This document shows, piece by piece, positions 25,532 through 58,011 of a stretch of 64,000 nt of DNA. Below the pieces are notes generated by a model. It saw nothing but the letters and a program-made list of their open reading frames with translations. It ran no database searches and was not told the DNA's origin. Position numbers and translations under genes: made by a program. The stretch lies in the NCBI GenBank assembly GCA_004022145.1, contig RCNU01000009.1; one strand, written 5' to 3'. Source of the DNA: Paecilomyces variotii (lineage: Eukaryota). Position 1 is the first letter of the stretch. Every line of letters starts with the position of its first letter.

Positions 25532-26980
25532 AGCCCCGTCTCGTGATGGCGGTCTTCCTGCAGTGGCCAAGAAATAATTTTGTGATATATGCTTTGTCCT
25601 TCCTTTCAATTGTAAGCATTTGTGGAGCCATGTCCCCTCTGGAGGGTATCGGCATATTTTCTCATTGATTTGAATTTTACTTGGAGTTTCGAGGCGGCAC
25701 ATATCCTTGTATGATTGCATGGCGGCGGCGCAAGGTTGTTGGGTACAGAACATCTGGCGGCTATCACCAGTGGGCATGATGTGTGTGGATGACCCATCTT
25801 GCATGGTTTTGTTTCTTTTCGTCTTGCCCTTGACCCCTTCGCCGAAGTCGGGTCTTCGGTTTATTTTGTGTACGGGTGGACCCGCCCTTTCATGGGCAAG
25901 GGTCCCCGTTGTTCTTTTTCCCGGTCTTCTCTACTTCTGTCGTTTAGACAGCTCTCTGGTGGTGTCTCCAACTCATGGAGCGTGAATGGCAACATCTTGG
26001 CAGGGCACACTCCTACGGCGTCTTATCCTAGTTTTGTTTAGCTTCTTTGTTCCCTTAGCATACCCATTGGGAGCAATTCGGGGACAAGGAGGGTTTAAAA
26101 TGTGTCATGGAATTTGTTATTTTCTCGAAAAAAAAGGAGTTGCACACGCCGTGTCATATGCCTGGCTGGGATGCCTTGTTCTGAAGCATACGCAAAAGTG
26201 GACATTTAATGCCTATCTGGTCTTTGCTGCGAGAGATACCAAGTACGAAACAAAATTCTAAGATCCTTTCTCAGATCATCTACGTAGAAGTAAATTACTA
26301 GTAGGCTTTTGCCTGTCACTGTGGTCATTGTTATTACTGATTCCACCTTGTCTCCTAGGACGAACAGTGCCGTAAGACCTCGAGATAGATGTACGTTTTG
26401 TTCCGCAAGGCCCATTTTCCTCTGTATCTACTGAAAAGGTCTCTAGATCCTCGAAACGTCAAGCGCTCCTGTTGTCTTCCAAAGTGATCTGAAGCTGGAC
26501 CTTAGCTTCATCTATTGGTTATTAGTTATTTTCCTGGTACTTGTAAAGGAAATAGAGTGAGCTGCCTAGGTATCAAGGACAGTCAATCTGGCGAGTTTCT
26601 AATTGAAATGCTATGTTTGTCATTTCAGATATCTCCGACTAAGGTATGCAGATAGGATGAAGATGAAGAAACTGCACCATTTTTTCAGACAAGATGGGTA
26701 AAAAAAAAGTATAAAAAAAAAAAAAAGATACATATATGGATTCCAACCCCGCACCGAGCATAAATAGCCATGTACCCGTACATTGAAGAGAGAAAGGGGC
26801 GAAAAAAGGAAAAGGGGAAGAAAAAGGGAAAAAAAGGAGAAAAGGCAGAGCCAATCCGGATAAATTAGCCATGTGATCACAGCACCGCTGCGAGGAAAGG
26901 AACACTGTACGCCTGATTGAAATACAAGGTTTCGGAGGAAGGAGTTGATGCATTAGGTTGTAGATTGTAGGCATATTGCC

Positions 26981-28216
26981 TCAACCTGCGACGGGCTCGG
27001 CAGTAGGGGCTGAAGCTGTTTCAGCTGGGTCTTCTGATTGCGGCACGTCGTTCTTCTGCTGCAATTGTCCGAGGCCATTAGCGAGAGTCAGAGCTTGTGG
27101 TAGTACTCCCTCTGTGCCCCAGATGGTTTTGATTAATTCCAGCTCGGCCTCGGCTACGTTGTCAAAGATGGATTCTTTCTCCCTGAAGGCTTGTTTTCTC
27201 CGTGGTTCGATTTTCTCCCAGTCCTGGCGAAGCTGGGCGCTTTCCTTTTCTGCCCAGTGGATCTGGCGACGGAGCAGGCGGTAGAGGTCGTATGGACGAA
27301 GGGAAAGCTCCTCTTCATCGAAGCCTAGTTCAGGGCCATAGTCGGGAATAGATATTGAGTCAAGTTCATCAATGTCTGCAGGCTCTTCGATGTTGGTGTC
27401 GCTTAATTGTTCCATGTCTTCTCTAGGGGGGTAGGACAGCTTTAGCTTGATACGCTGTAGCTTGCTGGTTGGCGTAGCTATTGACCCGAGAGCAGTATGA
27501 TGCTTTGGGACGGGGTCTGAAGGTCTCAGGGCTTCTGTTTCGTGGACTGTCCTCATGTGCTTCGCGAGAGCGTCTGAACGGGTGAAGCTGCGATCGCATT
27601 CTGTACGTAGTGAAACAGGCCATGTCAGTCAGGAATGCTCACAAATCAGAGTCTCAGATGAGATTAAGACACCCGAACACATACCTGGAAGTGCGCAGTA
27701 GAAAGGTTTCTCTCTGGTATGGCTTCTCATATGCGCGCGCAGCGCGTATCCGCTTGCATGCGTCTGACCCTTCCGGCTACAATCGACCCATTCGCAGGAG
27801 TACTTCTTCTGCCGGATCCCAATATGTTCATTATGGATATGCTGGACGAGGTCATCCATATTTCCCAGATCTCCAGCTTCGCATCCCTCCCATCTGCAGA
27901 CGGTCACTTGGTCACTGCCCTGGCCGCTATAGTCGTCATCCTGGCCGGCTCCGATGAGCGCGGCTGTGTTGGGTGAGTTCGGGATATCACCGGAGGTATC
28001 GGACGATATCGAGGTCGAAGGAGATGTCGGAGGAATATCTTCGTGAACTGAGGACATGGGCGTCTGGCGGTCCCAGGACGCGATGCCAGTGCGACGGCGC
28101 TTTGAGGGCGGCATGTTCGATGCGGAGGGTGATTGTCCCTGGTTATCGAGCTTCATGTCCTCAGTAAGGTCATCTGAAGCGATGGAGGAGAGAGGGGATC
28201 CTGGAGACTCGGCCAT
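26981..28216 (-). CDS. IEC1: C2H2 zinc-finger protein, INO80-complex subunit Iec1-like
   Basis: Three fingers (CRWEGC..HIHNEH; CEWVDC..HMRSH; CALPECDRSFTRSDALAKHMRTVH across the intron), then a coiled C-terminal region LYRLLRRQIHWA. Confidence 0.75.
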
Positions 28217-28927
28217 GGTGAAAAGCACACGGCTGTGATGCGAATGGTTTGCAAAAAGGGTCAATAGCAGGGTTGGATGCCTACAATCAAAGACATTGTT
28301 CCCGGCTGCATTGAATGTCTAAAGCAGCTATACCGCGATGGCCCCAGCACGTGACCGGACTATTTATCTCCGTCGGCGATGTGAGTTTTTTTCCCTCTGC
28401 TTTCCTCTCTACACATTTATCATTTCTGCATGTGTGCGCACAACACTGAGACCAAGACTACTCCTCTACAATGATAATTGGAATAGCATCAGATCATATT
28501 ATCCGTTATTGATATTATGTTCATAATTCATGTGCATGTTGATGATTTCTACCACTAAACCATCATAAACCAGTGAAGGGTAAGTCAATTAACCACAGCC
28601 CCTGCTTATTCCAACCTCCCCTTTTCCATGATGAGTAAAAAGTGAATTCTGCAATACAGACAGTTTCCTGTTCTGCAGTGAAACCGTGTGTTGACACCAA
28701 ATCTACACTTGATCTGATCGTCGAACCACTCGAAGCATTTGTTTTCAGAAGACGTCAAAAGGGTTTAGCTGACCTTCATTTCAGAACAGGAAATGCCAAG
28801 TAGAGTCCGCTATATGCAGAGTTTATCGCCTGATTTTTTTTCCCCCGTATAGCTTCGCTGCGTAGCAATAATCGTTGCTCTGACCGGGATGGAAGTAGTC
28901 TATCGACGGAGGCTGGTAAATACTGGT

Positions 28928-30090
28928 TTAGTGCGAAGGATATCTTTCTCCAACCACCTTGTGCTCCTGCAAGATCTTTTCGAGATCCTTCATATCCGCA
29001 TCGTCAAGTTCAGGGATGTCCTTCGTATTCTGAGTAACCTTGTCGCTAGTCGTACCACCAGGGATGGGAATAATCGTAGGCATGCCAGGCTTTGCGCTCA
29101 AGGTCTTCAGCCAGGACAGAGCGATCTGACCAGGGGTCAGACTCTTTCGCTCGGCGATCTTCTTCACTTCGTTGACCAGCTGCAGATTGTTCTTCAGAGT
29201 CTCATCTTGGTACTTAGGCAGCAGTCTCCGGAAGTCGCCCTCGGGGATATCAGTGAGTTTGGTGATGGAGCCTGTCAGAACTCCCCGGCCAAGCGGAGAG
29301 TAGGCAATCAGAGGGATTCCAAGTTCCGCGCAGGCTGCCGCGGTGCCATCTTCAAGGACGTGCGTATCCCACAGGGACAGTTCAACCTCGACTCCCGCGA
29401 TGGGGTGAATCTTGGCTCTGAAGTCATGTCAGTATCCTAGTTCGGTGTGGCCGGGATGCTTTGCGGTGCAGAATACGTACGCTCGTCTCACCGTCTCAGC
29501 GTCGACCTCACTGAGTCCGATGCCCTTAATCTTTCCCTCCTTCACGAGCTGAGCTAGGATGCTCACGGTCTGTTCGACCGTAGTGTTCGGGTCCTGTCTG
29601 GCGCATTCGAAGATATCGACGCTCTTCTTTCCGTCCAGGACTCGCAGACACTCGTCTACGCTTCGTCGGATGTTCTCCTCAGAGCCATCTGGTACCAGGG
29701 CACCGCGCTTCAGACCACCCTTGATGCTCAGAACCACTTTGTCTGCGTTTTCGGGGTACTTGGTGAAGTATCTGTTGAGAAGATGCAGCGAGTTGCTCTC
29801 GGGAGTACCGTACAGCTCTCCACCGTTCCAGAAGTTGGCACCGAGCTTCAACGCCGTGTTCAAGGTTTCAAAGGCTACTTCATCACTCGGGGGTGTAGGA
29901 TTCCAGGTCAATCCTGCAATTGTGATGGTGATTCTGTCAGTACTGTTCGACCTGTCTTTTCTTTTGTGTTCTTTTTTTTTCTGCACGGATTCACAAGATT
30001 GCATTCGCATTAGAGTCTGGGAAACAGAGAAAACATACTCATCATTCCATAGCCCGTAGGACCAACCTCTCTTCCGACGAGGATAGGCAT
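28928..30090 (-). CDS. Aldo-keto reductase, pyridoxal reductase (AKR8/Plr1)-like
   Basis: MPILVGREVGPTGYGMM, FWNGGELYG, LSIKGG, DIFECARQD, IGLSEV, AYSPLGRG, PIPG. The NGGE-YG and FECAR variants are typical of pyridoxal reductases. Two introns. Confidence 0.85.
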
Positions 30091-30829: not shown

Positions 30830-31350
30830 TCATGAGAGACCATGCTCGTCACTGTCATACAAAACGCTTGTCAACGCCGATGTCAGAGTGTTCATCAAAT
30901 CCTGAACAAGATCCGGCGTGTTGGCTGCGGTAGGAGTTGCTGAAGCGGTGCTGTTGCTTGCAGTCGGTGTAGCGGTGCTCTGGCTGGCTCCCGTGCCATT
31001 GCTAGAGCCATACCTGTTCTTTGGCTCGCCGAGCTTGTCTGCGATATCGTTCTTCACGGCATTCTTGAGAGCGTTGACATTGACGTGGAGGCCAAGGTCG
31101 GAAAGGATATCTGATAGACTGGCATTGGGGTCTGGAATGATTCTCTGTTATTCAGACCGTCAGCTATCCCTGTTGGGACTAAGAGAGGCGGATCTGTATG
31201 AATACTTACCGGTTTAGGGGATCTGGTTCTCAAGACAGTCGCTCCATCGCCTGCAGGGGAAATCGGCAGTGCCTCTACTGTACAAACAAAGACGATGAGG
31301 CCGAAAACGAAGTATATGATGGCAAGTGACGAAGACAGTGTAGATGCCAT
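30830..31350 (-). CDS. Small putative secreted protein, 151 aa, unknown function
   Basis: Exon 31350-31210 (hydrophobic leader ending VEA-LP) splices in frame over a GTAAGT..CTGAC..CAG intron to exon 31144-30830, which has an S/T/A-rich segment. Confidence 0.7.
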
Positions 31351-33009
31351 TGTGTATTGTAGTGATATTCCTTTTGCGAGGGCCTCAGATGGACGTGGGA
31401 TGAGGGGTTAGAGAGATAGATTGGAGGTTCTTGGACTGGGCGAGCTCAGAACAGAGATGAATTCTTGGATTGACACTTCTAAAGCTTGAGACATCTACTC
31501 AACTGTGGAGAGAACGCTTTCCGTGGATCCAAATGAAGTTCATATATTTGTAGTGAGGTCTATGCGAGACCGCTGTCATTTGCCTCCTTGTGGAATGTTA
31601 GGATAACGCGCCGGCGGGTGGCCGTCACCAACCCCATTTCTGATAGACTTGACAGCCCCCAGTAAGTTTTTGATTACCGCAATGCAGGCTATCCCTTGCT
31701 CTTTGTGGTTAACAAATTAGCAAACAGTGCAAAGATGAGACTGTTGTGGCGCTGTGCTCTATGATCACTGATTTGGAGATGTTTCAGCCGTCCTTCCTGA
31801 GTATGGACCATCTTTACATTCATATTGAGCCCCAGCCAGCTTTCGATCAGCTTTCGATCAGCTTCCAACTTGTAGTTAGACGGTAATAAGTATGCGCAGT
31901 ATGTGTTGTGCAACAAGTTATTCTATCTCTCTGATAAGGCAGTGAGATCTTTATATTAGCGAAAGTTGCCCTACATGCGAGGTGCATTGTCGGGTTTTGC
32001 CGTACTTTCACCTCGATCCTTCGTTTTAAGATGTCTCGAATCCTTTAGTTGAGATAATCTGTGTCTCCGCTCTGGAGAAAATAATGGCATGAAGGGGAGG
32101 AAGGCCGATATTCTAATGGCTTCCAAAAACGGAAATGATCTCTCTTCCGACCTCCGCTATATAGACCTCAAGATGATAATGGTTATCAAATCCGGGAAGA
32201 GAGTATCATCCAATAACGCTTTGATATAATCTAGAATTGAAATGTAACTTCAATATCGCAACTAAAGGCATTGTATTCGGACCGTCTGTTGTAGGGTTAA
32301 ATACTCAGGGTTTCATAGATCCTTCAGACTCCGATATGGCTCCTTCCAAGACTGCAGTGAGAACTTCTATGTCCACAGGCATCCTTGTATATGAATACTA
32401 GAAACATCTCTGGTATGTATAATAGAGTGAGATTCGTTTGCCTCGATATATTCGAGGAAAAGCCGTGCTGTAAGCATATCGATGAGTTCAAAAAGTGTAT
32501 GCGAAAGATGTGCCAAAGGACGTAGTCTTGCAGAATTTCTGCAGCGTGGACTTAACTCCAGGTATTCACCTCGAAACTCATATTAGAGAATACTTTCTAT
32601 TGGTCAGTTAAGATGTTTTGAATCCATGCTATGCTCTATGAGACCCAGAGAGGGTAGGTAGTTTGGGACTCAATGAAGGTCTCTACCAGCGCATGTTTCA
32701 ATGCTCGCATGAAATATGGACACTCGTAAAGTAGATATACATGATGGGGATTCGTTTAGCTATGGTTAACTTTATAGCATCTAGGAGCATCAAGTGGAGT
32801 ATCAAATTATGCTGCCTTGAAGGACAATACGAATGTAACCGGAGACGGAGACAACTTTAAACTCCGGTCCCGCCCCACTTGACGATATCTTAAATCAGAG
32901 AGCAGAACACTTTTCTTTTTTTCCATCATTGGAAACGGCAGTCTTTATGAGTTCCGTGCCCGCGTCTTGAAACGGAGTCCGTCTTTCAGTGAGGTTGCTC
33001 ACTGTGTGG

Positions 33010-35184
33010 ATGGTGATGGATGCGTTGAAATCTAAGCCTCTTAGCAGCAGCTCGCATGGTTCGGGACCTCGCGGACCACGGGCTTGCCGCATATGCGCCG
33101 TTGCTAAAGCTAGGTGTGTCCCGTCGGCAGTAGATGGGACAAAGTGTGAAAGGTAATTCAATTGATAGTATCAATAGACGGGCCAGAATTGGGTTGACTC
33201 GATTGCAGATGTCATCGTCTAAAAAAAGAATGCGTTATGCAGACTCCGTCCGCAACTCGCAGACGGAAGGCACCAAGAACGTGAGTTGATACATGTATCA
33301 GCTAGAGATCCATCGAGTCCAGATGATAACATGTTCAATAGGAGGGTTGCTCAATTGGAGCAAAAGTTAGATAACATAGTCACTCTTCTCACATCGAACA
33401 GGACTACCCCGGCAGATGAAGAACAAGTGCAGGACCGGGCCGATCCCTCATACACAGGTATACCTGCAGCCGCTTCATCAAACACTCAATCTGGCTCCAC
33501 ATCATCCATACCGGATGCTACCGCAGCATGCTTGCAGCCTGCTTCTCTTTCTAGGTCCCCAGATCCAGGACCACCCCACCAGTTCTATGGATCCGCGCCG
33601 TTACCACCCCCACCCGTTGAGTTGAATGAAGAGACGTGCCTCAACCTTTTCAGGATGCGTATGGCAGAACATTTTCCGTTCGTTATGATCGATAGTAAGG
33701 TGTCTGTACATGAACTACGTCGGGACAAGCCCTTTCTGCTCAAAGCAATCGTTGTCACAGCATCCTTCAGTCAAATGGAGAGGCAAATGAACTTGGGGAA
33801 AGAGTTCGTACAAGAGTTGAGCCAGCGCATGCTAGTCGAAGGTGAAAAGTCTCTAGACCTTCTACAAGGACTTCTTGTCTATATGGGGTGGTAAGTCTCT
33901 TTGTAACGTTCGTGTAACAATACACTGGATAGCCCTAACACCCCTGAACAGGTTCCAGTATCTGTTTTCTTCCATACGACAAATAACGAATCTGCTACAA
34001 CTTGCAGTAGCCCTCGTGGTGGACCTTGGCTTGAACAAAGGGCAATCAAAACCTAATGTTCAGTGCCGGTTCCAGAAAGTTTCAGATGCCATGGGGGATG
34101 TCTCTGGGCTTGGATCTAGCGGAGGATCTGGCACTCTTGAAGAGAGAAGAGCTTTTTTGGGTTGCTTCTACCTAACCGCTGTGTAAGCCGCTTAAGAATA
34201 GTGTCACGAAAAAGAAAGCCATACTGACCTCGAAACAGAGTCTCATCAGTGTTCAGGCGGATGGATCCACTTCGATATACGCCTTATGTAGAAGAATGCT
34301 GCCAAATACTGCTTTCTAGCAAAAGATACCCTACGGATACCTACTTGGTCGAACTCGTGCGCCTCCAGAAGATTGCGAACACTATCAAACGAAGTATCCC
34401 CATAGACGATATCGAGCCGGGCAAAATGAGGGCTCCGGTCGGGATGCACATGAAAGCTATAGAAAAGGATCTGCATGTTCTGCGCGAGAGCTGGAACAAG
34501 CTTGTCAAAGGGAACTGTGAGCCACCACATTGCTGTACACACATTTCGCATTCTCGACGAGAGGGCTTTAGTAACGATTCAGGTATATTAAACATACACT
34601 ACCACGATACAGAAATGTCTTTGTACGAGATAGTATTTTATGACATCCCTCCTCAGACTTCCTACGGATCCTACTCGTTTGAGCGATTGAATACACTTTA
34701 CGCCTGTCTTGAATCGTCACTCGCGTTGATAGAACAGTTCCTCTCGATCCCACCCGCAATCTATGTCTACGTGCCAATTGTGATATGGCTCCATATAGCC
34801 CGCGCTATCATATTCACTCGACGACTGTGTTTCCTCGAAAACAGCGAGTGGGATCTAAATTACGTTCGAAGCAGAGTCAACCTGCCAACAATCCTGGACA
34901 GGATGATTCAGAAATCGGAGCTGGCCAGATCTTCTATGCTTCAGCCCGAACTTGGAGAGCATAGGGACTTGCTACTCGTCAGCATTTCGAAGCTGCGAAT
35001 GGTCAAGGAGGGGTATCTGCGAGCGATAGCTTCCGAACAGGAAACAGTTGGATCGTTGGGACACAATATATCATCTAGTAGCGTTCCTGCTGGCTATTAT
35101 GACTTTGATATGAGCGAGGGTTTCCTCGGCATTTATGACAGCTTCTGGCAAGGATTTCCAGAAGGGTGGAACATTTGTAAGTGA
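33010..35184 (+). CDS. Zn(II)2Cys6 fungal transcription factor
   Basis: CRICAVAKARC-VPSAVDGTK-CER/CHRLKKEC joined across intron 33153-33208. Coiled coil RVAQLEQKLD. Middle-homology motifs HFPFV, KSLDLLQGLLVYMGW, LVVDLGL, EERRAFLGCFYL. Five introns. Confidence 0.93.
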
Positions 35185-35312
35185 TAAACAAGTAGCCTGG
35201 AATTTTTCCCATGTGATTGCTCTAGGACTATGGTATGCTAATCGGGAAGAAAGGAAACATATATCACAAGTCTTGCCTTGAGTTAGAGGAGACTCTGTCG
35301 ATCACGGTCAAC

Positions 35313-36331
35313 CTATTTCTTTATTTTGAGGCGCTTGAATGCCTGCGCATTCTCCTTAATAGCGATCTCCACTGGAAGCCTCTCCATGCTGCTCGCCCCG
35401 AAGAAGCCATGGACACCCTTCGTGCGGTTCAAGACGTATTCGGCGTCTTTAGGTTCCGCAATCGGACCTCCATGACATAACACGATAATCTCCGGATTGA
35501 TCTTTACGGCCGCGTCCCGGATATCTTGGATGATAGTGACACAGTCGTCAAGGCTCAGTGCCGTTTCGGCCCCAATGGATCCAGATGTCGTAAGCCCAAC
35601 GTGGCAGACCAGCACATCTGCACCAGCACGAGCCATCCGTTCGCCTTCGTCAACATTGAAGACATACGGACATGTAAGCAGATCGATCTCACGCGCTGCT
35701 CGGATCATCTCGACTTCCTTGTCGTATCCCATGCCTGTTTCTTCGAGGTTCTGCCGGAATTTTCCATCTATCAGTCCTACTGTCGGGAAGTTTTGCACTC
35801 CGCAAAAACCTAGCCCTTTGAGCTGCTGTAGGAAGTTCGGCATCGAGCGAAATGGGTCTGTACCACAAACACCCGCTAGGACACCAGTATTCTCCACGAT
35901 AGGGAGGATCTCGCTTGCCTACTGAATGTTATTATACCCCGAACGATCGAAGTGCTGAACTTGAGGACTTTCTAACTCGGTGATTATCACCAATATTCGA
36001 TGTATCTGAGACTTACCATTTCCACAACCACCTGGTTAGCATCTCCATACGGCATCAATCCAGCCAACGAACCGCGACCCGCCATTCGAAAACGACCCGA
36101 GTTGTAGATGATAATGAGATCACAACCGCCCTTTTCGACGCTTTTTGCTGATAGTCCGATGCCTAGAATGGAGCTGTTACTTGATTTTCCATGTACATAC
36201 AAATAAAGCCAATACAATGATGCTGGACGATGCGCTTACTTACCCGCCCCTGCTCCTACGATGGTACCTCCATTTGCGACGACGTCTTTCAGTCGACCAA
36301 GCACTTCTTTCCGAGTGGTTGGGCGAGGCAT
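35313..36331 (-). CDS. TIM-barrel protein of the PEP-hydrolase-like / 'TIM-barrel signal transduction' family (homologous to the Tm-1 C-terminal domain), 279 aa
   Basis: Exons 36331-36244, 36162-36017 and 35918-35313. Motifs [73 protein letters not shown]. Confidence 0.92.
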
Positions 36332-36749
36332 CTAGGAAATCTATGGATTGCTCGATTGTACTGTACGTTCCTCAGCGTCTTTTCCAATGGCGAACTTTCG
36401 GAGCTCAAAGCTTTGGTTTCAGTCGAGAACCCCGCGTTGCGTGAGGAAATCATGTGGATGTGATATCATTCGACGTCGGGAAATCTCCGCATACCTCTAT
36501 GTACGAAACAAATGCGGGGGTCCGGAGTAAATGTGCATACATGTACTTGACGCTCTTTTCCTCTGCAATATTGACAGATCCATGTAATAAACTGTGATTG
36601 ATGATAGTTCATACTGATTACCTATTCTATCAAATCAATGCAATTTTTTGGTTAACTGCTGATCCTGTCTATCCTGACTCAACACATAACTCTTCCATGT
36701 GCTTATTCAATCTAGAGCTTCACAAGAACCAGACGGCCCTCAAATAAAT
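36332..36749. promoter_or_regulatory. Bidirectional promoter with clustered SYGGRG (CreA-type) and CGG sites
   Basis: SYGGRG matches at 36430-36435 (-), 36485-36490 (-), 36514-36519 and 36522-36527. CGG-N7-CCG at 36477-36489. Confidence 0.55.
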
Positions 36750-38036
36750 ATGTCAGCGAAGATCTCCAAGCCTACGGTGCTCCTTCTAGGGACGTGCGAT
36801 ACAAAACTAGAAGAACTCCTTTTCGTGAAAAAGGAAATTGAGCGCACCAAAGCTTGTTCTGTACTTCTTATGGATCTGGGTAGGGTTTCGAGTACTCATC
36901 CAGCAGTGGATATCGGCCACGCAAGTCTTCTAGAACATGCATCCCTTCCAACGTCTCAAGATCCAAATACCTACTTCGCAACACTCGCAAAGGGAGATTA
37001 TATACAAACTCTAACTGCATTTGCGATCACCACTACCACGGATCTGGTCCAATCCACCAAGATCCAAGGAATTATCGGCATCGGCGGGTCTAGTGGGACT
37101 GCCATAGCTGCAGCAGTAATGCGCGAGGCAGTCCCAATAGGATTTCCCAAGTTGATGGTGTCAACCATGGCCAGCGGAAACGTGAAGCCTTTCATTGAAG
37201 AGACAGATATCACTCTAATGTACAGCGTCGTTGACATTGCGGGAACAAACACAATCTTGAACCGCATCTTATCAAATGCAGCCGCTGCAATCGTGGGTAT
37301 GACCTGTTCCCATGCAGAGCATCTCAGATGGGAGTCAATTCAACCGGCCAAGAAACGCGTGGCCGTGACCATGTTTGGCGTCACTACGCCTTGTGTCGAC
37401 AAGATCCGCGAGCACCTGGAACAGAATCACGGATACGAGGTTTACGTATTTCACGCAACCGGTTCTGGAGGCAAGGCTATGGAGCGATTGATCTATGAAG
37501 GACAACTCGACGCAGTCATTGACCTGACCACAACCGAGATAGCAGACGAGCTAGTTGGTGGCGTCCTAACTGCAGGTCCGAATCGCCTCGAAGCTGCAGC
37601 AAGGGCTGGAATCCCTCAAATTATCAGCGTTGGAGCCTGCGACATGGTCAATTTCGGTCCGAAGGATACCGTCCCAGAAAAGTTTACAGGCCGCCTACTA
37701 TATGAGCATAACCCGGCGGTGACGCTCATGAGGACCAGTCCAGAGGAGTGCCAGATGATCGGGCAGGATATCGCGCAGAAATTGCGTACCCATAGCACGA
37801 ATCCAGAGGTCGTACGCGTGGTATTACCAGAAAGAGGTATCAGTATGATATCGACGGAAGGTCAGTCTTTCCATGATAGCGAGGCTGATTCTAGTTTGTT
37901 TTCCACATTGAAGCAGGGACTCTCAGAGACTGAGATCAAGGTGGATGGAGTGTCTTTGGACATTAATGATCCGGAATTTGCGGTGCTCGTTGCAGAGTTA
38001 TTGGTAGAGTTGGTCCAAAGAGGTTCGAAAAATTGA
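36750..38036 (+). CDS. UPF0261 / Tm-1-like ATP-binding domain protein, 428 aa, intronless
   Basis: Motifs LLGTCDTKLEE, GIGGSSGT, PIGFPKLMVSTMASG, YSVVDIAG, TMFGVTTPCV, VFHATGSGGKAME, DLTTTE, GACDMVNFG, HNPAVTLMRT, DINDPEFA. Confidence 0.92.
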   Translation: MSAKISKPTVLLLGTCDTKLEELLFVKKEIERTKACSVLLMDLGRVSSTHPAVDIGHASLLEHASLPTSQDPNTYFATLAKGDYIQTLTAFAITTTTDLVQSTKIQGIIGIGGSSGTAIAAAVMREAVPIGFPKLMVSTMASGNVKPFIEETDITLMYSVVDIAGTNTILNRILSNAAAAIVGMTCSHAEHLRWESIQPAKKRVAVTMFGVTTPCVDKIREHLEQNHGYEVYVFHATGSGGKAMERLIYEGQLDAVIDLTTTEIADELVGGVLTAGPNRLEAAARAGIPQIISVGACDMVNFGPKDTVPEKFTGRLLYEHNPAVTLMRTSPEECQMIGQDIAQKLRTHSTNPEVVRVVLPERGISMISTEGQSFHDSEADSSLFSTLKQGLSETEIKVDGVSLDINDPEFAVLVAELLVELVQRGSKN

Positions 38037-41101: not shown

Positions 41102-42296
41102 CTAGACACCGTCTCCAAACGCGTAGAAGTTCATCCACCGCTATACAGGTCAAAAGTTAGATAATCAAACGACAAGGGCAGGGAACTTTTACACACCTTA
41201 TCGTATGGTCTTGAAGAATCACAGAATCGGAGATCGGTTGCCAGTCGAATCACATTGTCAGGGTCATGGTTAACGGTCGAAGCGTGGATCTATCCACCAA
41301 AGACCAATCATCAGCACACTGTATTGATGGGATAGAATGATTGAAAACGAAACATCTTTCTTACCGCATGAGCCTTATGAAGAACAACATCGCCTGCTTC
41401 GTACGCGGATACTAACCAGCGGCGATTATGTTCCCTCGCGAACTCCTTGGGATATTCAGACAGCATGCCTGTCGACATCATATTCTGGTTGAATCCCGAG
41501 CGGGCCTCCTCGTCGGTGAGTCCACTTTCTTTGGCTTTCCGGGTGAATTCATCTTCGATCTCGCGGCCGAGAGAGTCGCCTATATAATAATAATAACACA
41601 GTCGTCAACAATCCGTACTGTTTTGCATATGCATTGCGGAACATAAGAGACTGGAATCCCACCATCTTCAAGATAAATCAAACCACCACCATTAACCTTC
41701 ACATCCCCAATAGGCACCCACGCCGTCACAGCCGTGGGCTCTCCATATCTCAAAAAGATCTGATCATAGTGCACACCAATCGGCTTCGAAGTCGGTATAT
41801 TATTCCTCAACAACGTCCTCCTCACAGGCAGAGTATTCTTACCCCAACCAGTAAATTCAGCCACGAAGTTCTCCAGCGCCGGATGTCTACACAGTTCCTC
41901 CGCATACCAATCTTTATAGTGCGCTTCGAGAGCTAAATCGACGAATTGCTTCGCGCTATCTCCTCCCGGACGGCCATTCCCCCCTACAGCGCCCGCGCCG
42001 ATTCCTGGAAAGTCATGGATGGAGCGCTTCGAGTTGAAGATGCCTTCGACGGGCTTCGTGCCTTCTTCAAGCACGCCAGTCGGAGCGACGAGATTGAAGT
42101 ACCTCTCGCGGGCTTTGAGCACGTCTTCACGAGGGAGGAGTTGTTTTAGGAAGAGGTAGCCGTCTTCGTTGTATCGGTTGCGGAGCTCGTCGATGGGCGT
42201 GATGTTGGGGTCAGAAGGTCTGAGATATGCGATGTCCTCGGGTTGAAGAGGGCCATCGCTCACGGCGAGTTTGTCAACTGTGACTACTCCGACCAT
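41102..42296 (-). CDS. Phytanoyl-CoA dioxygenase (PhyH)-like Fe(II)/2-oxoglutarate oxygenase
   Basis: EDGYLFLK, HYD (HxD) in VHYDQIFLR, TAWVPIGD, YEAGDVVLH, distal IHAS, IRLATDLRF. Three introns. Confidence 0.88.
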
Positions 42297-56854: not shown

Positions 56855-58011
56855 TTATATAACCGGCGTGTCCGCAAAGCTACTGGCCATACCCCTGTAG
56901 ATGTTCCCATGAGAGTCAGTTTGTTTTTCAAGATTTCTTTCGGACGTAAAAGCGACGAGCATGATGGAAATCAAGACTTACCCATCCGGTAAGGGCCTTC
57001 CAACGGCTTCTGCATTTTCAATTTCATATCGAATCTTCTTGACCTCTTCAGGATCCAACTGGAGCATCACAGCCTGTTCGTTCAATTGGACGTTTCTCGT
57101 CTTGGTAGTTCCGGGAATAGGGATAATATCGCTGCCCTGGGCCATGAGCCAGGCGAGGACGAGGGTACTAGCGTGACATCCTTTCTGTTCTCCAAGGGCA
57201 CTGAGGACCTCGTAGAGCTTGAGATTCCGGTGGAATTTCGTCGGTCCGAATCTTGTCAGCGTTCTGCGAAGGTCGTCGGTGGAGAGATCTTCGCGCGACT
57301 TGATTTGACCACCGAGAAGACCACGTCCGAGAGGGGAGTAGGCCACGATGGCGACTCCAAGTTCACGCGCTGTTTGTAGAAAGCCGTTTCGCTCAATGTC
57401 TAGTTTGTAAGGGCTGTATTCTACCTCGGCTGCTGCGATGTGGTGGACCTTGCATCTGTGGCAAACTTGCATTAGAACTTACGTATGGATTTGGTTATAG
57501 GTATATATACTTACGCTGCACGGAGCGTCTCGGCGCTACAGTCGGAGAGTCCAAGATATCGGATCTTCCCCTCCCGTTGCAAGTCGGCCAAAGCAGCTAC
57601 TGCCTTTTCAATAGGCATGTACCGTTCAATGCGGTGGAGGTAATAGAGATCGATCGTTCTGACTCCCAGTCTCTGCAGGCTTCGGTTGCAGGCGTCCTTG
57701 ATACACTGCCCGTCATCGTCTTGGGCGAATTCGTCCGTTCTCGCAAACTTGGTAGCCAGAAAGATCTCGTTCCTCACACCGGTTCGGGCGAACCACTTCC
57801 CTAGCAGCTCTTCACTGTCGCCGTATAGATCGGAGCTGTCCCAGAAGGTGCAGCCAGTCTGGTAGACATAGTCCAGCATCTCGAACCGTCGTTCGTCGGG
57901 GGGCGGAGGACCGTAGAAGACGGACAGACCCATTGTTCCATACCCCAGAGCGCTGACATCGGGTCCATACCGGCCCAGCTTTCTGGTTGGCAGTTGCAGT
58001 TGAGTCGGCAT
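56855..58011 (-). CDS. Aldo-keto reductase, YakC/AKR13-like
   Basis: VSALGYGTMGLSVFYG, FWDSSDLYG, FLATKF, IDLYYLHR, EYSP, AYSPLGRG, IPIPGT, last exon ending FADTPVI. The D/Y/K/H tetrad is present. Two introns. Confidence 0.9.

Follow-up and report, generated by a model that had tools for sequence, protein, structure and literature searches.

Background

Genes related to Tm-1, a virus-resistance protein of tomato, are found in almost every land plant as well as in Dikarya and many prokaryotes, and a locus of the fungus Paecilomyces variotii raises the question of what the two halves of such a protein do when they are encoded apart. This locus, at positions 33,010 to 38,036 of a 64,000-nucleotide stretch of contig RCNU01000009.1 (hereafter the window), comprises a TIM-barrel gene and a UPF0261 gene standing head-to-head, with a gene for a Zn2Cys6 transcription factor beyond the barrel gene. 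The original prediction took all three for a 'split Tm-1' module: a co-regulated two-component enzyme system with its own activator, whose native role was regarded as unresolved. We present evidence that the pair is a conserved unit of two probable enzymes, of which the UPF0261 protein would be a kinase, and that the factor is probably not part of it.

The pairing of UPF0261 with the PF09370 barrel is itself already known, and the P. variotii locus is an ordinary orthologue. Fungi were reported to encode both halves of Tm-1 as separate genes that co-evolve, and an interaction between the halves was proposed (Yang 2016, PMC5028733). As here, the pairs of that study comprise both families as separate, single-copy genes across Dikarya, and its table includes orthologues such as Aspergillus clavatus XP_001269250/251; unlike the present analysis, its main text, so far as available, does not describe the head-to-head layout (the terms 'head-to-head', 'bidirectional' and 'linked' do not occur in it) and offers no biochemical function. 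On the biochemical side, MarK (Saro_1862) of Novosphingobium aromaticivorans, an ATP-dependent kinase that phosphorylates acetovanillone and related phenols with release of ADP, has become the first UPF0261 protein with a demonstrated reaction (PMC12624787), so that the description of the native role as unresolved is out of date for this family. Our literature search, which covered subscription journals thinly, found no report on the function of fungal or barrel-partnered UPF0261 proteins or on the native reaction of Tm-1-like genes.

Results and discussion

Two genes homologous to the halves of Tm-1

The principal features of the locus are as follows.

33010..35184, + strand: Zn2Cys6 factor, 624 aa; exons 33010-33152, 33209-33280, 33342-33890, 33952-34182, 34239-34516 and 34583-35184
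35185..35312: convergent gap of 128 bp, stop-to-stop, between the Zn2Cys6 factor and the barrel gene
35313..36331, - strand: barrel gene (PF09370), homologue of the Tm-1 C-terminal half, 279 aa; exons 36331-36244, 36162-36017 and 35918-35313
36332..36749: shared divergent promoter region of 418 bp, the ATG-to-ATG gap between the barrel and UPF0261 genes
36750..38036, + strand: UPF0261 gene, homologue of the Tm-1 N-terminal half and of MarK, single exon, 428 aa

Gene models based on public annotations, Pfam matches and the annotated P. variotii proteins agree with the three genes and the two gaps as originally predicted. The UPF0261 protein matches PF06792 (E=4.7e-60, 203 bits) followed by PF23189 (E=9.7e-97, 323 bits), with cut-offs of 27 bits, and NF002674 of NCBIfam above its cut-off. 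The barrel gene has two GT-AG introns; its product does not differ at any residue from P0122, an annotated P. variotii protein, and matches PF09370 over the full length of the profile (E=7.9e-134). Both family assignments are thus sound, and the split-Tm-1 reading is correct in that the two halves have separate homologous genes. Unlike the plant-type fusion, P. variotii has two genes on opposite strands, each with its own start codon.

A conserved divergent pair in fungi and an operon in bacteria

We tallied the layout of the pair in 61 fungi, P. variotii not among them, from the coordinates in Table S2 of Yang 2016 (PMC5028733). The two genes stand head-to-head less than 1 kb apart in 52 of the 61 genomes, i.e. 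in 45 of 54 ascomycetes and 7 of 7 basidiomycetes, covering 36 of 40 genera, with a median gap of 330 bp. This far exceeds chance. Consecutive accessions confirm that the two genes are also neighbours in the Eurotiomycetes Polytolypa, Rasamsonia byssochlamydoides, Monascus, Talaromyces proteolyticus, A. fumigatiaffinis and P. variotii No. 5. Identifiers in model fungi include NCU00864 of Neurospora crassa, listed as a TIM-barrel enzyme family protein, and ANID_08931/08932 of A. nidulans. A metagenome scan aimed at fungal loci returned 64 prokaryotic-looking loci with 30-62% identity and no fungal synteny. No two-domain protein combining UPF0261 and barrel was present among the 518 fetched proteins, the searches being limited to lengths of 235-749 and 110-352 aa; Yang 2016 (PMC5028733) reports two such fused proteins in Aspergillus.

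In prokaryotes we surveyed the best 80 of at least 595 GTDB barrel matches, selected by likeness to the fungal proteins. A UPF0261 gene lies within 7 kb of the barrel in 56 of these 80 loci; in 51 of the 56 it is at most 300 bp away, mostly directly upstream and on the same strand. In a quick, unrooted tree from a short search, comprising 14 of 65 fungal homologues and the window protein, these 15 fungal UPF0261 rows cluster together (support 99) and are nested among bacterial proteins that have a barrel partner. This nesting points to a bacterial operon that became a bidirectional pair in fungi and, in plants, a fusion, so that the halves have been held together in three independent ways. In the same tree the fungal group has as its sister (support 96) the bacterial UPF0261 proteins of loci L079, L099, L108, L126, L090 and L103, on long branches that leave their placement unsure; in L079 and L108 a flotillin gene directly follows the barrel.

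The conserved divergent layout and the bacterial adjacency together support the view that the pair is functionally linked and probably co-regulated, and we regard shared regulation of the UPF0261 and barrel genes as very likely. Several observations weigh against too simple a version of this view. Nine of the 61 fungi depart from the tight divergent layout (Table S2 of Yang 2016, PMC5028733): in 2 the genes are divergent but 3-5 kb apart, in 3 they are in tandem at 4.7-6.2 kb, and in 4 they are unlinked or on different scaffolds. Likewise, 24 of the 80 GTDB loci have no UPF0261 gene within 7 kb of the barrel, 19 of them with adequate flanks, and the whole prokaryotic sample was picked by resemblance to fungal proteins.

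The UPF0261 protein as a probable small-molecule kinase

Searches of the PDB with the UPF0261 protein retrieved both Tm-1 (3wry, E=4e-81) and MarK (9mpy, E=9e-55, 32% identity). Its structural model (pLDDT 90.8) is closer to Tm-1 (TM 0.77-0.83) than to MarK (TM 0.61), and it has 36-37% identity to Tm-1(1-431) in the structures 3WRW, 3WRX and 3WRY. Alignment places the following residues in the predicted active site.

36798..36806, + strand: D17-T18-K19, corresponding to MarK D14-T15-K16 and Tm-1 K20, ATP site
37452..37454, + strand: H235, corresponding to MarK H219, which is hydrogen-bonded to the acceptor hydroxyl
37641..37655, + strand: D298-M-V-N-F302 pocket motif, common to Tm-1; MarK F283 and I285 align at M299 and N301

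Beyond fold and family, the fungal protein thus has in common with MarK the D/T/K of the ATP site and the G/H/H of the acceptor site, MarK G195/H219/H304 being retained as G210/H235/H320. All 65 fungal and all 89 prokaryotic rows agree at D17, K19 and H235; H320 is invariant in the 65 fungal rows and G210 is present in 64, while T18 is T or S. Conversely, the aromatic pocket that receives the ketone in MarK is not retained, T196, F283, I285 and H348 of MarK being V211, M299, N301 and I367 in the fungal protein; MarK further differs in being a homodimer encoded in the acvCDEF operon, which has no barrel gene (PMC12624787). The motif differences follow the partnership with the barrel: N301 is present in 73 of the 75 prokaryotic UPF0261 proteins encoded at most 1 kb from a barrel gene, and 10 of the remaining 14 differ at 298-302, where several have a DF-type motif as in MarK; the sample is biased to proteins that resemble the fungal ones. 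In a subgroup of the UPF0261 proteins with a barrel partner, H320 is replaced by W (16 of 89 prokaryotic rows) and V211 by N, the latter also seen in 9 of 65 fungal proteins, hinting at a second substrate class.

Taken together, this residue pattern makes the UPF0261 protein a probable ATP-dependent small-molecule kinase, and we infer that it is of a Tm-1 subtype whose substrate would be different from, and more polar than, that of MarK. Two points count against this assignment: MarK belongs to the barrel-less type, so that the kinase role of barrel-partnered UPF0261 is drawn by analogy, and in MarK itself the ATP site is about 25 A away from the substrate site (PMC12624787).

The barrel protein: probable enzymes and putative sensors

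The model of the barrel protein (pLDDT 81) adopts the (beta/alpha)8 fold, and its nearest relative of known structure is Mll9387 of Mesorhizobium loti (PDB 2P10; E=7e-78, Z 32.8, rmsd 1.9 A, 58-59% identity to the fungal barrel), which is also the sole PDB match of a profile built from 57 fungal barrels. The folds that come next after 2P10 are for the most part barrels that bind phosphate (Pdx1, IGPS, TrpA, TIM and KDPGal aldolase), tied at Z 15-18, which argues against singling out any one reaction. The title of 2P10, 'putative phosphonopyruvate hydrolase', gives no better guide: phosphonopyruvate hydrolase 2DUA (Z 16.4) is level with many unrelated barrels and no nearer than TIM, IGPS or KDPGal aldolase, and the Pfam name (PEP_hydrolase-like) is hence no evidence for that reaction. 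Matches in the ESM Atlas outside PF09370 score at most 0.81 (TMP synthase, histidine biosynthesis, TrpA) and are leads only. The 'IGPS-like' label of a wheat homologue has been disputed (bioRxiv 10.1101/2020.10.12.336560).

Model strand positions and conservation define one further feature of the barrel.

35388..35474, - strand: H227-G-G and G252-A-S-S, at the ends of strands 7 and 8

We take these to have the location and pattern of the standard TIM-barrel phosphate-binding site. The stand-alone barrel is strongly conserved, with a mean column identity of 81% in 57 fungi and up to about 70% identity to bacterial proteins. In two bacterial loci (L073:3500-5425 and L117:3702-5525) a PF09370 barrel is fused to a sigma54 activator with AAA+ and helix-turn-helix modules, directly upstream of a UPF0261-barrel operon. 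Both fused barrels retain the GG/GSSER site and E257/R258, but have Y49 replaced by L, Y163 by F and H227 by Y, and one also H184 by N, whereas Y49, Y163 and H227 are retained in the fungal barrel and in the stand-alone partners. As the fused copies lose these residues but hold the phosphate site, the stand-alone proteins may be enzymes and the fused ones sensors of one ligand; on this view the phosphorylated intermediate that is only sensed by the sigma54-fused copies would be turned over by the stand-alone barrels. The fungal barrel is accordingly best viewed as probably an enzyme for a phosphorylated intermediate, a view weakened by the dependence of the contrast on two fused proteins. Locus L048 has three paralogous barrel genes, and the active site of one of them is degenerate.

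A predicted two-step pathway and its genomic context

We propose, with somewhat more confidence than doubt, that the two genes form a catabolic or salvage module of bacterial origin under one bidirectional promoter. By extrapolation from MarK, the UPF0261 protein would quite likely hold ATP at D17/T18/K19 and a hydroxyl-bearing small molecule at G210/H235/H320, phosphorylate the latter and release ADP. In a second step, which we favour modestly, the barrel would grip the phosphorylated product through the phosphate site of strands 7 and 8 and isomerise or cleave it with Y49, Y163, H184 and H227. Compared with the phenyl ketones of MarK, the substrate is probably the more polar; as a tentative first guess it could be a small sugar, a polyol or a compound resembling a sugar acid.

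The genes adjoining the bacterial pairs form an uptake-and-breakdown context. Of 92 such neighbours 88 were scanned here, the remaining 4 having been scanned earlier or being flotillin-like, and they include cupins (17), ABC ATPases (8), Gfo/Idh/MocA proteins (5), HpcH aldolases (3), ThuA-domain giants (3) and xylose-isomerase-like proteins (2), with 30 assigned to no family; FAD oxidases, molybdenum hydroxylases and RuBisCO-like proteins recur farther away. This variety tells against any single pathway or substrate. A RuBisCO-like gene lies near UPF0261 in L048, L060 and L063.

A pattern scan of the 418-bp shared promoter found the following.

36430, 36485, 36514 and 36522: four SYGGRG sites

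SYGGRG is the consensus of CreA-type sites. Four sites compare with a mean of 0.68 in dinucleotide shuffles (P=0.003; one of nine patterns tried), and 5 of 110 GC-matched windows have at least four, two of these being the pair's promoter. Five SYGGRG sites are also present in window 32500-33009, upstream of the Zn2Cys6 factor. In two brown-rot fungi a UPF0261 orthologue is up 6.9- and 9.2-fold in late wood decay, and it is listed alongside glycosidases and a sugar transporter (PMC6867892). Literature searches by gene identifier for further fungal expression data gave passing mentions only. The probably co-regulated pair may be subject to carbon catabolite repression: the CreA-type sites and the late-decay induction are both compatible with a carbon-catabolic role, and neither proves it.

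Alternative readings of the locus

Two other biochemical roles deserve consideration. The pair might phosphorylate phenols in the manner of MarK within a pathway for aromatics derived from lignin, the barrel taking the place of the bacterial carboxylase steps, as G210, H235 and the stacking H320 are retained and molybdenum hydroxylase subunits and SRPBCC proteins are among the bacterial neighbours. We nevertheless consider this unlikely, given the four substituted positions of the ketone pocket, the association of DMxNF with a barrel partner and of the DF-type motif with its absence, and the lack of any acetovanillone carboxylase-type family in the 25 open reading frames (ORFs) of the window or the 88 scanned bacterial neighbours. 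The aromatic dikinases HpeHI and AcvAB resemble the pair by analogy, as two-gene modules for small-molecule phosphorylation; as relatives they were rejected, being homologues of rifampin phosphotransferase that make AMP (PMC12167813) and giving no match from either window protein. Alternatively, the pair could be a device for sensing ('TIM-barrel signal transduction'), in which the barrel merely binds a phosphorylated metabolite and modulates its ATP-binding partner. The older name of the family implies such a role (PMC5028733), and the barrel does serve as input domain of the sigma54 activators of L073 and L117; the extreme conservation of the stand-alone barrel and its retention of the polar residues lost in the fused copies make it very unlikely. 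A catabolic or salvage module remains our preferred reading.

The claim that the adjacent factor is a dedicated activator, forming a three-gene module with the pair, must be judged separately. An intact factor gene adjoins the pair in each P. variotii strain with comparable accessions, albeit within one species; SYGGRG sites abound upstream of the factor as well as in the promoter of the pair; the 418-bp promoter has two CGG-n-CCG sites; and regulators (GntR, sigma54, Crp, AraC) adjoin bacterial pairs. Set against this, a word search for the factor recovered the P. variotii cluster only (1 of 891 candidates), and a HMMER search a single 193-aa fragment of unknown origin at 85%, followed by matches at 28-40% from a family of thousands; in neither search did a full-length relative from outside P. 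variotii exceed about 40% identity. The nine best full-length relatives are scattered over Dothideomycetes, Leotiomycetes, one Pezizomycete, one Aspergillus and Rhinocladiella, whereas the relatives of the pair are from Eurotiales and Onygenales, and in Rhinocladiella the factor match is Z518_02453 but the UPF0261 gene Z518_09320. In these searches no orthologue-level match, and thus no linked orthologue, was found in other genera. In A. fumigatus, where the order is zafA (AFUA_1G10080), two loci, barrel (1G10110), UPF0261 and sahA (1G10130), a gene for a short-chain dehydrogenase (SDR), which many models merge with the barrel, lies directly 3' of the latter; the window lacks this SDR and has an aldo-keto reductase, a small ORF and the Zn2Cys6 factor in the same interval. 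The CGG-n-CCG count gives P=0.06, and words common to the promoters of factor and pair are at background level, as is CCGGAGT, which was considered as a shared site and discarded. The 128-bp gap joins two 3' ends and is therefore uninformative on regulation. A dedicated activator, even one recruited recently, is on this evidence decidedly improbable: the Zn2Cys6 gene is probably a lineage-restricted neighbour and bystander, and of the proposed system with its own activator the linked, probably co-regulated pair is what stands.

A further question concerns viruses. The UPF0261 protein is unusually variable among P. variotii strains: with the divergent strain DTO271G3 left out, 11 distinct alleles (12 of 16 members were used) differ by a mean of 4.04%, against 0.56% for the Zn2Cys6 factor, 0.57% for the barrel, 0.61% for a Kelch protein, 0.39% for Prp31 and 0.69% for Iml2, i.e. 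6-10 times the diversity of these five neighbours, in protein-level counts of distinct alleles. Strain DTO164E3 alone differs at 20 of 428 residues of UPF0261, 0 of 279 of the barrel and 2 of 622 of the factor. This excess keeps open the mycovirus-restriction role that the original prediction had mentioned as a weaker alternative, namely that UPF0261 also restricts mycoviruses, like Tm-1, and is under balancing selection. In keeping with selection, polymorphic to fixed sites relative to DTO271G3 number 53:13 in UPF0261 and 50:66 in four neighbours (nominal P=1e-6, with linkage and allele frequency ignored), the four-gamete test points to recombination, as 175 of 351 pairs of sites fail it, and the variation spares the conserved core, with 2 of 133 highly conserved columns varying; a partitivirus is, moreover, listed for P. 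variotii (PMC10768695). Yet the equivalent of the Tm-1 region under selection, residues 79-112 (PMC3475678), shows no clear clustering of variation (8 of 35 versus 58 of 393 elsewhere, P=0.15), these being fungal residues 68-102 in a poor alignment. A. fumigatus UPF0261 alleles differ by just 0.40%, and all these counts are of protein-level differences between distinct alleles. An unrelated ORF 3.5 kb off is variable too, so that a linked balanced site or introgression may account for the excess.

41583..42296, - strand: ORF of 238 aa with no Pfam or NCBIfam match; 1.7-3.1% difference among close records and 73% identity to a more distant one

The discoverers of Tm-1 themselves expect it to have another primary function (PMC3475678). 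We therefore hold an antiviral role to be highly improbable. Equally speculative is the broader scenario of a Tm-1-family metabolic kinase co-opted a second time into genetic conflict, in which old, recombining UPF0261 alleles would be kept because they are bound by, or block, a mycovirus or other antagonist while the barrel stays near invariant.

Other features of the locus and window

The Zn2Cys6 gene fits its class of fungal transcription factors, with a six-cysteine cluster, a fungal-specific middle region and an intact reading frame.

33085..33233, + strand: Zn2Cys6 cluster C26-C56, split by intron 1 (motif search)

The complete C-x2-C-x6-C-x9-C-x2-C-x6-C cluster spans residues 26-56; PF04082 scores 29.5 bits, above its cut-off, and the PF00172 profile gave no score at E 0.1. 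The protein is 95.8-100% identical to annotated P. variotii proteins (99.5% to P0241, and identical to P0394 over 622 aa).

Around the locus Pfam identifies housekeeping genes (Iml2, an FF-domain protein, Chd1, a zinc-finger factor, AdoHcyase, Prp31 and Clf1). The C2H2 zinc-finger gene at 26639-28216 (-), with a weak Zap1_zf1 match below the cut-off, is probably zafA; if so, zafA ... barrel-UPF0261-sahA is a backbone conserved with A. fumigatus. Two aldo-keto reductase genes are present, at 28889-30010 (-), two genes away from the pair, and at 56978-58011 (-). Small ORFs at 30830-31350 (-) with a hydrophobic N-terminus, a Ser/Thr/Ala-rich stretch and no NCBIfam match are possibly one spliced secreted protein. 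Some public models (P0411, P0412, P0423 and P0434) merge UPF0261 with AdoHcyase, in two P. variotii strains, or the barrel with the SDR, in many A. fumigatus strains; the 810- and 949-aa UPF0261-AdoHcyase models of the two strains were not accepted as true fusions, as they look like annotation merges spanning intergenic DNA. No conserved C-terminal targeting signal was found.

Conclusions

Our analysis makes the Dikarya-wide bidirectional layout of the pair explicit and adds a predicted residue split between MarK-type and barrel-partnered kinases, a putative contrast of enzymes and sensors within the barrel family, and the excess of UPF0261 alleles, which is the sole feature of the locus specific to P. 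variotii. As an ordinary orthologue, the locus provides a further system for tests rather than a new kind of system. The pair, together with MarK and the residue map, makes the native reaction of the family testable, and could reveal the original function of a gene that now serves as a resistance gene in a crop.

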